From an uncultured candidate division Zixibacteria bacterium (GTDB taxonomy: Bacteria; Zixibacteria; MSB-5A5; RBG-16-43-9), in contig OY970208.1 of NCBI GenBank assembly GCA_963713865.1, positions 2,400,001 through 2,464,000 on the forward strand: 64,000 nucleotides of DNA. The letters are read 5' to 3'. Shown piece by piece: positions 36,258 to 40,022 of the stretch. The notes below the pieces were generated by a model. The model saw only the letters and a list, made by a program, of their open reading frames with translations. It was not told the DNA's origin and made no database searches. Made by a program: the position numbers and the translations under genes. Positions within the stretch are counted from its first letter, which is position 1. Each line of letters starts with the position of its first letter.

Positions 36258-36513
36258 ATTATGGAGTGCATCAGTTTACTGACGCATCTTCGAGCAAATA
36301 AAACTCACCCTTGCTCTTTCCTTAGAAAAGAAAGGGAATTAGTTGTAGGGACAGAATCCGCCTCAGGCGGATTCTGTCCAATACTTCCTCTGCTGACCGT
36401 GGGTGGCACCCTCAAACTTGTTTGGGGGTGACTTATAAAATCTTAAGTTTATTAACTCCATAATTACCTTAAATGAAGCGAACCTGAAAGGTTCGCACTT
36501 GTATATTGAATAT

Positions 36514-36715
36514 TATGTTTATATTTTACAGGTGAATAAGGGATATACCCTTCACCCAATGGTGGAAGGGAACCTTGCCGACAGATCGTGTCGCACTTGG
36601 GCTAAAAGCTCGTTCGTAGCTTGGTCGTCGGCAAGGTCCCTTGTGCCTCTGCAAGCTCGAACAGTCGAATGGTTAAAAAGACCGCATAGCAAGTATGGGC
36701 TACCAGAGGCAAGTT
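36514..36715 (+). ncRNA. Putative IS110 bridge RNA (ends approximate)
   Basis: 5' hairpin; stem GGGAACCTTGCCGAC/GTCGGCAAGGTCCC enclosing target matches; stem GCCTCTG/CAGAGGC enclosing donor matches. Confidence 0.8.
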
Positions 36716-36744
36716 AATTAAATTATACTAAAGGAGGAGTAGTT

Positions 36745-37670
36745 ATGCAACAGATAGTTTGCGGGATTGACGTTAGTTCAGAGGAGCTTGAAGCTTGCAT
36801 TCTTTTGGCAGATGATACTGCTAATCCACACCGCCGGACCTTCAGCAACACCAGGAAAGGTATTAAGAAGTTCATATCTTGGTTAAGGGGTAACAAAGTA
36901 GAGTTGGTAGTTATGGAGGCATCAGGAGGGTATGAGCGGGTTTGTAGGAGGATGTTAAGAGAGTTAGGGATTCAGGCTCATGTAGTTAATCCTGCACGGG
37001 TAAGGCATTTTGCCAGGGGGATAGGAAAACTGGCGAAGACGGACAAGATTGATGCCCGGGTTATAGCCAGATTTGGACAGGTGGTGAAGTTAGAGGAGTT
37101 AGGGGAGATAAGTGAGATGGAGTTGGAGATTCAGGAGCTTATCAAAAGGCGGCAGGAGTTGCAGGAAATGGTAGTGGCAGAGAAAAACAGGCTTCGTATA
37201 GCAGAGAGGGAAAAGGCAAAAAGCCTTAAAAGGATAATCAAGGTATTGGAGAAGGAGCTTGAGCTGATGGATGAGAGGATAAAGGAATTAGCTCAAAAAG
37301 ATGATCAGATTATGCGGAAGGTTGGATTTTTAAGAAGGGAAAAAGGGATGGGATTTATCACCGCTATAAGTTTACTTTCTTGTTTACCTGAGTTGGGGAG
37401 AGTAGATAGGAAAAAGATATCTGCGTTGGCGGGGGTGTCACCTTTCAACCGAGAGAGTGGCAAGTGGAAAGGTAAAAGCTTCATAAGTGGAGGACGTGGA
37501 CTCATAAGAAGATCCTGTATATGCCTGTCTTGGTAGCAATAAGATTTAACCAGAAGCTAAAAGAGTTTTATCAGAGGTTATTAGCTTCAGGAAAGGCAAA
37601 AAAAGTAGCCGTGGTTGCGGTGATGCGCAAATTACTAATTATCTGTAATGCCATTTTAAAAAATGCTTGA
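36745..37670 (+). pseudogene. IS110 DEDD recombinase/transposase with a frameshift near 37505
   Basis: GIDVS, VMEASG, KTDKIDA, RESG; conserved C-terminus ILYMPVLVAIRFN..FYQRL..GKAKKVAVVAVMRKLL in another frame, ending TGA at 37670. Confidence 0.9.
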
Positions 37671-37850
37671 TTTTCAAGACAGTCGCTACGAGAAAAACAT
37701 AAAATAAACAAAAAAATGGAGGTCTGAAGACCTCCGCTACACAAAAATGCAGGGGCGGGTTTTAAACCCGCCCCTGCAAAAACAATAAAAATATAAACTC
37801 ACTCACCTGCTTATAAATTTCCTCCAGTAACTTCTTCAAGACTTACTTAG

Positions 37851-40022
37851 CTAACCGGTCTTATCAGCCAGAAATTTGATTCGATCATATCGTTCCCGGA
37901 GCTTGTCCATCTCTTCTGAGGAATCAGAATCCTTTCTTTTCTTCAAAACTCTGACCGCCTCTAATTTAATCTCCTCGTCTATCTTTTTGCCTGAAATCCC
38001 TTTATCAAATATCCTGGGTTGATTAATAACTTCAACCAAAAATTTGTAACCCTTTTCTCCCCCGACATTATTGATAGTGTGTAAAATCAGAAGAGCATTG
38101 TCTTCGTCTTTATAGAAAAGCTCTTTTAACTTATCAACGGAGTTCTCCGAACCGCAAGAGCCCAGAGCCATCAGGGCTAATTTCCTGATCTCCTTATCCT
38201 CTTCCTTTGCCAATGCCAGGATAAGCTCCTCGCTTTTTTTACCACCGGTTTTCTCTAAAGTCTGCAGGACCGCTTTTTTTACCTTAAGGTCTTTATCGCC
38301 CATCAATTTTTCCAGTCCGGATAAGGATTTTTCGCTCTTGATGTCGGATAATATATGGAGAATATTCCTTATTTTAAACCAGCTATCTAAAGTCAAATTC
38401 CCGGATGAGTCTCGCTGGAAACTGGAATCATCCTGAATTATTCTGGAGAAATAGTCAGCCCCGGCTTCCCCTGAACCACTCCCGGCAATCTTTAAAACCA
38501 CCTGCCTTATGGTTCTATCCGGATCGGTTAGAAGAGGTTCTAAAGCCTGGGCAATTTTTTCTCCCCCGATTAAAATCAGTGCCTCCCCAACTTTCTCCCA
38601 CACCTCCTTTTTTTTACTTTTTATCTCCCCCACCAGCTGCTGGATGATCTGGTCCCGGGCAAAACTCTGAATAATCTTAATATACCGTTCCTCTTTTTCC
38701 GGCGAATACTCCCTTTCCGGATCTGACCTGAGTTCCTGGATGATCTGGTTGAATTGCCCGTATTCGCGGGATATTATCGACTGCCTGGCACAGTTTTCCA
38801 AAAGCTGAAAGTACTGAAGATCGATCCGGTTTTTATGGGAAAGCATCTCCTGGACAAAATACCTGAAAAGCTCTTTGGAATATTTCAGGAAGAAAGAAGA
38901 GAAAGTTTTAAGCCAGAAGAAAGAGGTTTGACGTAAATTTTCCTTTTCTGAAAAAAGATTCTGCCAGAGAGCATCGATCGTCTTCTTCAACCTCTCCGCC
39001 TGATTTAAATTGATAAGCTTGATCAAAAGATTCTTCAGGCTCTCCTTCTCTTCCGCCTTTGCTTCTCCGGAGATGAGTTTATCTAAAACCAGCTCAGAGT
39101 CCCTTAAGGTCTTGATCTTGAGCAAAGTGCTTTCATCTAAAGCTTTTTCAAAAAAGTTCTCCGGAGCACCCTGGCGCACAAAAACATCCTTCAACTCGCT
39201 AAAAAGGTAATCCCTTTCCGGATGATGGATAAAAGCTTTGACTAAATTCTTCACCCCGTCTAAATATTCCCCATTTTGAGACATCTCCTCCCAGTCTTTT
39301 CCGGCGAACTCATTTTTTAAAAGCTCCTTCACTTTTTCTCGGGGTAATTTCGAGAACTCCTCCAGCAGAATAGCTTGAAAAACATTGAGCCTGAAATCAA
39401 ACTTTAGTTTCCCCTCTAAATCTATATCTTTCTTTATCTTTCTTAACAATATGTCTAACATCAGCTGTGGGGCTTGTTGTAGCGAAATTCTGGCAAAAGT
39501 CTTAACTTCAAAATCATCACATTTTTCCACTAAAGAGATGCTTTCTTCTAAGAAAGTATCCCCGGGCTCTGATTTTTTCACCCGGATAGAATTGATTCTC
39601 TTATCTTCCAGGAACCTCTGCAGATTCAGATTCTTAGGCAAGGGCAAGAGTTTCTCGCTCAACCTTCTTAAAAAAATGTTCAGCTCATCCGAAGCCACCT
39701 GGCCATAGATATAAACACTGCCTAACTCGAATTTGAAAAGCTCGATTTTCAACCCGCGTATGAAAACCTCCTCCTTCAGAGGAATACCCATAGCGTAAAA
39801 TTTATCCTGATAAAGGTGGAAATCGAAGTAGCTCCTCAGGCGGAAAAGCTTCTTCATCCAGTTAAAAGGTTTTTTGGATAACTCCTTCTCTGCTGGATGC
39901 TCCTGGGTATATAGTGCCAGGCAGCGTGAGGATAAGAAAAGCTCCCTTAAGATCTCTTTCCCCAATTCCCTCAGGTCTAACTCCAGGTCTTCCCTTTTAA
40001 GTAATGAAAAATCAAATACCAT
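37851..40022 (-). CDS. HEAT-repeat protein, paralog of 44066-46339
   Basis: Helical repeats (LLTDPDRTIRQ..., LMGDKDLKVKKA...); shared Y..EHP and W(F/Y)K(I/V)RN motifs. Confidence 0.8.
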   Translation of the reverse strand: MVFDFSLLKREDLELDLRELGKEILRELFLSSRCLALYTQEHPAEKELSKKPFNWMKKLFRLRSYFDFHLYQDKFYAMGIPLKEEVFIRGLKIELFKFELGSVYIYGQVASDELNIFLRRLSEKLLPLPKNLNLQRFLEDKRINSIRVKKSEPGDTFLEESISLVEKCDDFEVKTFARISLQQAPQLMLDILLRKIKKDIDLEGKLKFDFRLNVFQAILLEEFSKLPREKVKELLKNEFAGKDWEEMSQNGEYLDGVKNLVKAFIHHPERDYLFSELKDVFVRQGAPENFFEKALDESTLLKIKTLRDSELVLDKLISGEAKAEEKESLKNLLIKLINLNQAERLKKTIDALWQNLFSEKENLRQTSFFWLKTFSSFFLKYSKELFRYFVQEMLSHKNRIDLQYFQLLENCARQSIISREYGQFNQIIQELRSDPEREYSPEKEERYIKIIQSFARDQIIQQLVGEIKSKKKEVWEKVGEALILIGGEKIAQALEPLLTDPDRTIRQVVLKIAGSGSGEAGADYFSRIIQDDSSFQRDSSGNLTLDSWFKIRNILHILSDIKSEKSLSGLEKLMGDKDLKVKKAVLQTLEKTGGKKSEELILALAKEEDKEIRKLALMALGSCGSENSVDKLKELFYKDEDNALLILHTINNVGGEKGYKFLVEVINQPRIFDKGISGKKIDEEIKLEAVRVLKKRKDSDSSEEMDKLRERYDRIKFLADKTG

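Follow-up and report, generated by a model that had tools for sequence, protein, structure and literature searches.

The 64,000-nt stretch of DNA analysed here (the window; positions below are window positions on the forward strand unless a genome position is named) corresponds to positions 2400001-2464000 of the genome of an uncultured candidate division Zixibacteria bacterium (GenBank assembly GCA_963713865.1, contig OY970208.1), which is a single contig of 2.72 Mb with 94% completeness and 40.4% G+C. At 36498-37685 the window holds an insertion sequence of the IS110 group, which sits between two convergent genes, one for a protein of 741 aa that bears a type IX secretion sorting tail and the other for a 723-aa HEAT-repeat protein. 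The element measures 1188 bp with its left CT counted in and is composed of a 245-nt left non-coding end (36500-36744), which encodes a predicted bridge RNA, a frameshifted recombinase gene, and a right non-coding end of 15 nt (37671-37685), the last 7 nt of which form the left donor (LD). It is one of three copies in the genome and almost certainly an IS621-type bridge recombinase element, and the IS110 assignment made in a preliminary description of the window is borne out by the borders, the copies, an empty site and the domains of the recombinase.

The borders of the element are marked by a CT dinucleotide, which stands at 36498-36499 and again at 37686-37687, with the hairpin GCGAACCTGAAAGGTTCGCA (36478-36497) on the left, the 3′ arm of which constitutes the left target (LT), and ACGAG on the right, where the second CT core and the right target together occupy 37686-37692. 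A search for inverted repeats found none joining the two ends of the element. Excision of 36498-37685 in silico leaves GCGAACCTGAAAGGTTCGCA-CT-ACGAG, and this restored hairpin, already noted in the preliminary description, also exists as a natural joint. When the assembled contigs of metagenome runs X1-X20 were compared with positions 36300-37900, a 9461-nt contig from run X3 was found to join 36497 directly to 37686, skipping 1188 positions, with CT as the two shared letters; it spans 36420-36497 and then 37686-37747 without a break and carries a single CT. A 171-nt contig from run X1 likewise lacks the element, with 31 other letters in place of the right half of the hairpin. Sediment, wetland and soil metagenomes from 14 studies have contigs that are nearly identical to the element or to its flanks. 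The contig depth in X3 is 156 for the element and 50 for the empty site, a roughly threefold ratio which fits a multi-copy element, contig depth being weak evidence.

In the source genome the element is present as three full copies and one 92-nt partial match. The full copies differ at one position in 1189 alignment columns, the 245-nt left end is identical in all of them, and each has the left CT core and is flanked by a hairpin and CT on one side and by CT-AC on the other: the window copy (copy A) lies between ...GGTTCGCA-CT and CT-ACGAG, copy B between ...GGGTCGCA-CT and CT-ACATT, and copy C (genome positions 1081803-1082991) between ...GGGTCACA-CT and CT-ACGAT. A further partial, near-identical copy on a metagenome contig (L100), with a recombinase 99% identical over the aligned residues 174-308, ends in ...ACAGTCG-CT-ACGAA at a locus that is absent from the source genome. 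Among the related genomes compared, the full element was found only in the source genome; right-end fragments followed by CT-AC stand at contig starts in one genome of the same genus (three places) and one of the same family (one place), and the scaffold motif of the left end was not found in the six same-family genomes searched for it.

The recombinase is well placed within the IS110 family. The intact protein, encoded by copy C, is 308 aa long; the N-terminal DEDD RuvC-like domain is identified by a match to PF01548 (6.3e-27), the C-terminal Tnp domain PF02371 is covered over the full profile in the intact copy (8.6e-15), and the intact copy reaches 211.4 bits with NF033542, the NCBI equivalog model for "IS110 family RNA-guided transposase", for which the cut-off is 140. 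In a phmmer comparison with solved structures the best match was the IS621 transposase (8wt6_A; E 1.5e-36, 129 bits), followed by the ISCro4 transposase (9t56; E 1.4e-34), aligned over residues 6-307. Residue equivalences, counted on the printed phmmer alignment with a two-residue chain offset allowed for, place D9, E58, D100, D103 and S238 opposite D11, E60, D102, D105 and S241 of IS621, A59 and G61 opposite the core-reading residues A61 and G63, and Y259, M260 and L263 opposite the hydrophobic wedge Y264, M265 and M268, the roles of the catalytic, core-reading and wedge residues in IS621 being those described by Hiraizumi 2024 (PMC11208158).

In the window copy the gene is split into a first open reading frame at 36745-37536 (263 codons, the last 8 out of frame), which covers the DEDD RuvC-like domain and, as far as the catalytic serine, the Tnp domain, and a displaced C-terminal part at 37521-37670 (49 codons). 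The frameshift claimed in the preliminary description is indeed there: at 37508-37509 (alignment position 1012) an A that follows 37508 in copy C is missing from copies A and B, which read AAGAAGATCC instead of AAGAAAGATCC. As a result, PF02371 is interrupted at profile position 66 of 87 and the frame is lost after residue 255, directly ahead of the wedge motif, with a stop at 37536, which removes the hydrophobic wedge (Y259, M260 and L263 in the intact copy) and the C-terminal 50 or so residues. Programmed frameshifting was considered and rejected, as inspection by eye found no slippery heptamer around 37500-37515. An error of assembly or consensus, which would leave the window copy autonomous and fully functional, appears unlikely. 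The extra A is present in all three metagenome contigs that cover the site (from runs X1, X3 and X7) and in L100, and a long-read indel error is conceivable in a single-contig assembly at 94% completeness; however, copy C was resolved with the A in the same genome, so that a systematic basecalling error would have had to spare one copy in three, and the homopolymer at the site is merely AAA versus AA. The missing A is therefore probably a real deletion, and its presence in two copies would then mean that an already frameshifted element had given rise to a new copy with a recombinase supplied in trans. With its recombinase frameshifted, the window copy probably depends on the intact copy at 1081803-1082991, and in annotation its gene is to be marked as a pseudogene or as frameshifted.

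The left non-coding end folds into a pronounced structure, with a minimum free energy (MFE) of -83.3 kcal/mol for 36500-36744 (z = -4.56), and 0 of 200 shuffled sequences fold as well. The predicted RNA begins with a 5′ stem-loop GGUGAA...UUCACC (36531-36556), followed by a target-binding stem-loop at 36568-36640 and a donor-binding stem-loop of the same design at 36645-36710. The former consists of an outer stem with the arms GGGAACCTTGCCGAC (36568-36582) and GTCGGCAAGGTCCC (36627-36640), an inner stem GAUCG/UGGUC (36584-36588 and 36622-36626) that closes the internal loop, and a distal hairpin at 36599-36612, and the latter of an outer stem GCCTCTG/CAGAGGC (36645-36651 and 36704-36710) and a distal hairpin at 36671-36684. 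At 36674 the window has T where the element contigs of three metagenome runs have C, so that in those contigs the distal stem of the donor loop (GGUU/GACC) has a G-C pair in place of G.U; no guide segment is touched by any of the differences listed between the window and the metagenome contigs. The heptamer GAACCTT (36571-36577), part of the outer stem of the target-binding stem-loop, reads AAGGTTC on the opposite strand, a 7-mer that also stands in the hairpin variant at the insertion site of copy A and is specific to the flank of that copy; the match is taken for chance. A permissive Rfam search of 36300-37900 assigned no family to the left end and returned nine weak matches far below the gathering scores, all of them in the flanking hairpins.

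Both internal loops carry segments that correspond to the ends of the element or to its target. In the target-binding loop (TBL), the left target guide (LTG) U-GUCGCA-CU at 36589-36597, written GUCGCACU as RNA and found as the DNA string GTCGCACT at 36590-36597, has the top-strand sequence of LT and the core, and the right target guide (RTG) UUCGUAG at 36613-36619 is the reverse complement of CT-ACGAA; it is followed by a handshake guide CU (36620-36621), the C of which can pair with the G at donor position 7. In the donor-binding loop (DBL), the left donor guide (LDG) ACAGUCG at 36661-36667 matches the final 7 nt of the right end at every position (37679-37685; 7/7), and the right donor guide (RDG) lies in the string AUAGCAAG on the 3′ side, where AU-A-GCAAG (36686-36693) pairs discontiguously with the core and the start of the left end, CT-TGTAT: GCAAG (36689-36693) pairs with C8, T9, T10 and G11 and meets T12 in a G.T pair, and after a skipped A the pairing resumes with AU opposite A13 and T14. 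The handshake guide UA next to it (36694-36695) can pair through its U with the A at target position 7. In IS621 the LTG and LDG pair with the bottom strand and the RTG and RDG with the top strand (Durrant 2024, PMC11208160), and the same assignment follows here, since the LTG and LDG have top-strand sequence and the RTG and RDG are the reverse complement of the core and its right flank. Apart from the trivial match of the left end to itself, the exact matches of at least 7 nt to the target or donor are the three guide strings only, each on the strand used by IS621, and by rough arithmetic the joint probability of three specific 7-8-mers occurring in the right order and on the right strand within 245 nt is about 1e-7. 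The guide strings and stem arms listed in the preliminary description stand at the positions it gave, letter for letter, and the IS621-type layout it proposed, target loop followed by donor loop, agrees with the fold and with the order and strand sense of the guides, whereas its RDG, although correct in the pairing of GCAAG with the left end, was drawn too short, the longer form being AU-A-GCAAG with the skipped A and the G.T pair.

The target spelled out by the guides, the 13-mer GTCGCACTACGAA, is a prominent feature of the genome. It occurs at 24 exact sites on the two strands against 0.05 expected, and at 59, 101 and 303 sites with at most one, two and three mismatches, respectively, which bears out the earlier suggestion that the target guides match a repetitive extragenic palindromic (REP) repeat of the host. 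GTCGCACTACGAA is the commonest variant of a repeat with the full unit GCGACCCTGAAAGGGTCGCA-CT-ACGAA, which often stands beside a second hairpin GCGAGGCT.AAAGCCTCGC; the hairpin pattern itself has 81 matches on both strands at up to four mismatches. Only 5 of the 59 sites with at most one mismatch lie inside open reading frames of at least 150 aa, although such frames make up 82% of the genome. The exact 13-mer is also present in all eight other genomes of the same family, 9-22 times in each, with 0 occurrences of the reversed control in the family, whereas 22 genomes that represent the order's other families all lack it. Since the 13-mer is found family-wide and the full element in the source genome only, the repeat is older and more widespread than the insertion sequence.

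REP sequences carry a conserved GTAG-type tetranucleotide next to the palindrome and are associated with the gene of a Y1 transposase, the REP-associated tyrosine transposase (RAYT), which is flanked by REPs. The CTAC that follows the targeted hairpin reads GTAG on the other strand, and by its shape, number, extragenic position and CTAC/GTAG foot the repeat fits the REP label. PF01797 (Y1 transposase) has eight matches in the genome with HUH-like motifs, for example at genome positions 1449485-1449955, which are possible RAYTs; a REP of the targeted family lies about 120 nt upstream of the open frame of one of them, and none of the eight was seen to be flanked on both sides. A second palindromic family ends in TGCCCCTAC, with 84 exact 9-mers genome-wide (for example at 83888, 489504 and 761743) and many copies of the form GTAGGGGCA...TGCCCCTAC. 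As this family also ends in CTAC/GTAG, several REP families share the foot that is read by the core and the RTG of the IS110 element. Further hairpins occupy the same intergenic region as the element at 36349-36379 (GGACAGAATCCGCC...GGCGGATTCTGTCC), 37716-37735 (GGAGGTCTGAAGACCTCC followed by GCTAC) and 37748-37778 (GCAGGGGCGGG...CCCGCCCCTGC); two of them score as terminator-like, and the very high summed depth and many loose ends that all three show in the metagenome contigs suggest that they are repeat families of their own.

Hundreds of relatives of the intact recombinase were found, the best 80 in the genome collection being 35-46% identical (from Rhizobium, Anaerolineae, Planctomycetota and others) and the best in the metagenome collection, L100 excepted, at most 48% identical. 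A motif like CCCGAACAGTCG lies upstream of the recombinase gene in 70 of the 80 genome loci. In a MAFFT alignment of 48 distinct left ends, window included, the RNAs align around AGAYCG, CCCGAACAGTCGC and GCAAGGATGGG; the RNA of the window has the fixed blocks of the family, AGAYCG, CGAAC..T.G and GCAAG.A.GGG, while the variable columns that separate these blocks are where its guide strings lie, the LTG in the LTG columns of the alignment. The right ends of the relatives were located by their own LDG 7-mer followed by YT, which succeeded in 42 of 48, and six types of LDG (ACAGTCG, ACAGTTG, ACCGTTG, ACGGTTG, ACAATCG and AGGGTTG) were each found at the right end of their own element.

For the RTG, the 7-mer was compared with the core and 5 nt of right flank in 36 usable elements, the six without a right-end match (L014, L017, L024, L060, L061 and L070) and six with a short or masked flank or no extractable RTG (L009, L032, L034, L041, L046 and L047) being left out; L009, which has the donor loop most similar to that of the window, stands outside the counts because its target loop is unaligned and yielded no RTG. 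At the five non-core positions, 14 of the 20 distinct pairs are Watson-Crick complementary in 5/5, four in 4/5, one in 3/5 and one in 2/5, the last being L026, which uses G.U pairs, whereas the permuted pairings reach 5/5 in 0 of 378 and 4/5 in 20 of 378. The covariation of guide loops with flanks that the preliminary description had named as a check is therefore present. For the LTG, the region shares an exact match of at least 7 nt with the upstream DNA of its own element in 25 of 39 cases, compared with 150 of 1406 permuted pairings, and the match is usually followed by the start of the left end (TGTAT, TTGTAAC or TTGTGTC). The TBL handshake shows C opposite G in 36 of 36 relatives and is thus invariant, without covariation, while the DBL handshake, examined by eye, agrees in 4 of 4 cases, as U:A in the window and as G:C in L026, L007 and L063, where target position 7 is C.

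Two multi-copy relatives whose borders were set by comparing their copies illustrate the correspondence. In L026 the LTG CCGGUCCU faces the flank GCCGGTC-CT, the LDG reads ACAGUCGC, and the RDG AU-CC-ACAAG faces CT-TGTAT; in the L063 group the LTG is AUGGUUCCU, the RTG GAGGGAG, and the RDG AU-CG-AGGAG faces CT-CCTAT. The discontiguous layout of the RDG seen in the window is found in both, and in the Rhizobium group (L007 and others) the RDG showed no clean pairing with the start of the left end in the register used. The L063 group comprises L063, L066, L067 and L082 from one metagenome-assembled proteobacterium, and all four copies lie at sites resembling ...GTTC-CT-CCCTC with CAT (three copies) or CAC (one copy) at a distance of 6-8 nt on the left side. 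Read on the other strand, this corresponds to a Shine-Dalgarno sequence plus start-codon region, so that this element seems to be programmed against ribosome-binding sites.

The source genome itself offers a further case in the form of a relic, the 100-nt left end of a sister element at genome positions 596639-596740. It sits behind ...GGCGGGATGCCC-CT (ATGCCC-CT), at the foot of the repeat family that ends in TGCCCCTAC, and keeps the RNA scaffold, including an exact GGGAACCTTGCCGACAGATCG, while its LTG slot reads TTGCCCCT and matches its own flank. To judge from these letters, guide and flank have changed in concert here as well, this time within one genome. The similarity of the relic to the window element ends exactly after the CT of the LTG-coding DNA, where the AC of the REP target comes next. 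As the LTG-coding DNA copies the left target and core by design, a complex of recombinase and RNA could take it for the left junction, and we tentatively suggest a natural route of decay in which this DNA would cross over with the right junction, so that the recombinase gene is lost and a solo left-end stub remains; deletion by other means may also have truncated the relic. A literature search on self-targeting by bridge RNAs returned two reviews only, a thin basis for calling such a mechanism unpublished.

A different account of these insertions would be that the recombinase picks its target by the structure of the REP hairpin, with the complementarity of the left end being incidental or belonging to an mRNA leader or another regulatory structure. 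All insertions do lie at the foot of a hairpin, and for ISPpu10 a 2026 preprint describes a target stem-loop as adding specificity (10.64898/2026.03.19.712850). Relatives with hairpin-less targets, such as the L063 group at GGTTC-CT-CCCTC, are nevertheless still perfectly complementary to their own flanks in both RTG and LTG, none of the 378 permuted RTG pairings attains 5/5, and in the relic guide and flank have changed together, which makes this account very improbable. The REP hairpin may well contribute to target choice, but it cannot be the sole determinant, and the intergenic structure at 36500-36744 is, as predicted from fold and complementarity, the gene of a guide RNA rather than a regulatory leader.

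Several observations weigh against an RNA-guided, currently mobile element. The match between LDG and right end is partly a matter of construction, the relatives' right ends having been located by it; what it does show is the presence of a match where one was expected. The LDG also lacks the core C, which is included (ACAGUCGC) in 46 of the 48 aligned rows, the window row counted among the 48; the window and L009 read ACAGUCGAA. RNAalifold applied to the 48-row alignment, which is not structure-aware for the outer stems, gave only three conserved pairs, all of them in the distal stem of the donor loop. In the MFE structure the LTG is joined to the RTG, and the LDG to the RDG, by short 2-bp helices, and the mean probability of being unpaired is 0.54-0.70 for the guides. 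Some complementarity between LTG and RTG is to be expected, since both include the core (CU in the LTG and AG in the RTG), and when all four guides are held open the loss is only 5.3 of 80 kcal/mol and every flanking stem is kept, with the probability of being unpaired near 0 there; the exposure of the guides in loops, as originally described, hence stands for the stems and for the low cost of opening, and does not hold for the MFE structure, in which some guide bases are paired. The resident copies, moreover, occupy sites with 2, 3 and 2 guide mismatches (TTCGCA/ACGAG, GTCGCA/ACATT and GTCACA/ACGAT), and the 24 exact sites are empty. With regard to the preliminary description, which had expected other copies at the programmed sequence, all three copies do sit at the foot of a REP hairpin with CT-AC kept, but at imperfect variants of the exact target. 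The guides fit the consensus of the repeat more closely than the occupied sites. The core-proximal CA-CT-AC is retained at all three occupied sites, and with 277 sites at one to three mismatches against 24 exact ones, imperfect occupancy is what chance predicts if distal mismatches are tolerated. Finally, two of the three genomic copies are frameshifted, which, together with the truncated relic of the sister element and the absence of any RNA run from the 24 runs listed, could indicate that the family is extinct in the source genome, that the copies are fossils and that the REP match records past activity. Such a history is improbable in view of the single difference in 1189 alignment columns, which points to recent spread, the intact open reading frame of copy C with all its catalytic residues, and the near-identical intact elements in contigs of several runs and at the other locus L100; the site in the window is also empty in one strain, so that its occupancy is polymorphic.

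A candidate promoter for the bridge RNA is split between the two ends of the element. TTGATT at 37667-37672, which overlaps the stop codon of the recombinase, and TATATT at 36502-36507 would serve as the -35 and -10 halves and come together only in the circular right end-left end (RE-LE) junction, where joining through one CT gives TTGATT-17 nt-TATATT (9/12). In the integrated left junctions of copies A, B and C no promoter site of at least 9/12 was found, and in L026 the putative junction promoter is TTGACA-17-TATATT at the same offset. In the proposed cycle, the element would excise as a circle with its right end joined to its left end across a single CT, and the resulting sigma-70-type promoter TTGATT-17-TATATT would drive transcription of a bridge RNA, some 200 nt long, from the left end. 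The donor loop (LDG ACAGUCG, RDG AU-A-GCAAG) would then hold the joined ends of the element itself, and the target loop (LTG GUCGCACU, RTG UUCGUAG) would hold GTCGCA-CT-ACGAA, the 3′ foot of the REP-like hairpin that is present in dozens of intergenic copies, with a tetramer of the DEDD/Ser recombinase presumably exchanging strands at CT. The window copy, with its bridge RNA gene intact and its recombinase broken, would take part through trans-complementation by the intact copy.

Most of these features have counterparts in IS621 of Escherichia coli, the prototype of the bridge recombinases in the IS110 group, which inserts into REP sequences. Both elements have a CT core and no inverted repeats, and in both the left end, which precedes the recombinase gene, encodes the bridge RNA, in which a 5′ stem-loop is followed by the target loop and then the donor loop, and the DEDD motif, the catalytic serine and the hydrophobic wedge are conserved. 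Target positions 8-11 are CTAC in both, and so is the right donor TGTAT, which for IS621 was derived from dT10, dG11, dT12, dA13 and dT14. A discontiguous RDG likewise pairs with seven donor bases, with G.T at donor position 12; in the IS621 structure A157-U158 and C162-G165 pair, G161 pairs non-canonically with dT12 and two U's are flipped out (PMC11208158). The handshake guides of IS621 pair with the non-cognate DNA (PMC11208158), and its promoter is split in the same way, with the -35 in the right end and the -10 in the left end (PMC11208160, PMC11208158). In contrast, the two proteins are distant (E 1.5e-36, 129 bits), the RTG has 7 nt here and 4 nt in IS621, the RDG skips one base rather than two, the LDG has 7 nt and does not pair with the core C, as opposed to 8 nt in IS621, and left donor positions 6-7 are CG instead of AT. 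These differences, as read from the predicted RNA, are ones of degree.

Among the other IS110 members, ISPpu10 and ISPpu9 of Pseudomonas putida are found in REP sequences (10.64898/2026.03.19.712850; PMC12288879) and, as these sources describe them, target an intergenic repeat whose copies are identical and in which a GC-rich stem-loop directly precedes, on the 5′ side, the target that is base-paired. The arrangement resembles that in the window, where pairing of the LTG likewise falls within the 3′ hairpin arm; the two cases differ in host lineage and in the sequence of the repeat. The ISCro4 transposase (PDB 9t56) is a relative at the protein level, which is what the comparison covers. The IS1111 group, of the seekRNA type, shares the same two protein domains and has its guide RNA downstream of the recombinase; the right end of the present element is only 15 nt long and therefore cannot hold a guide RNA of that type.

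RNA-guided IS110 elements have been known since 2024, when thousands of orthologues, with 5,511 pairs of RNA and target, entered the covariation analysis (Durrant 2024, PMC11208160), and REP targeting by members of the family is already documented. The element described here neither overturns nor opens a question in the field. It adds one natural bridge-RNA element that is unusually complete, with three copies, an empty site in a wild strain, 24 exact candidate targets and a sister relic, and its 7-nt RTG and one-base skip in the RDG represent small natural variations on the IS621 design. The recombinase, which, L100 aside, is at most 48% identical to anything in two large collections, may be of interest for collections of orthogonal bridge recombinases. 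If the route of decay suggested by the relic is true and general, every IS110 element would carry an internal pseudo-target, and stubs truncated at the LTG would be expected to be common around REP sites.

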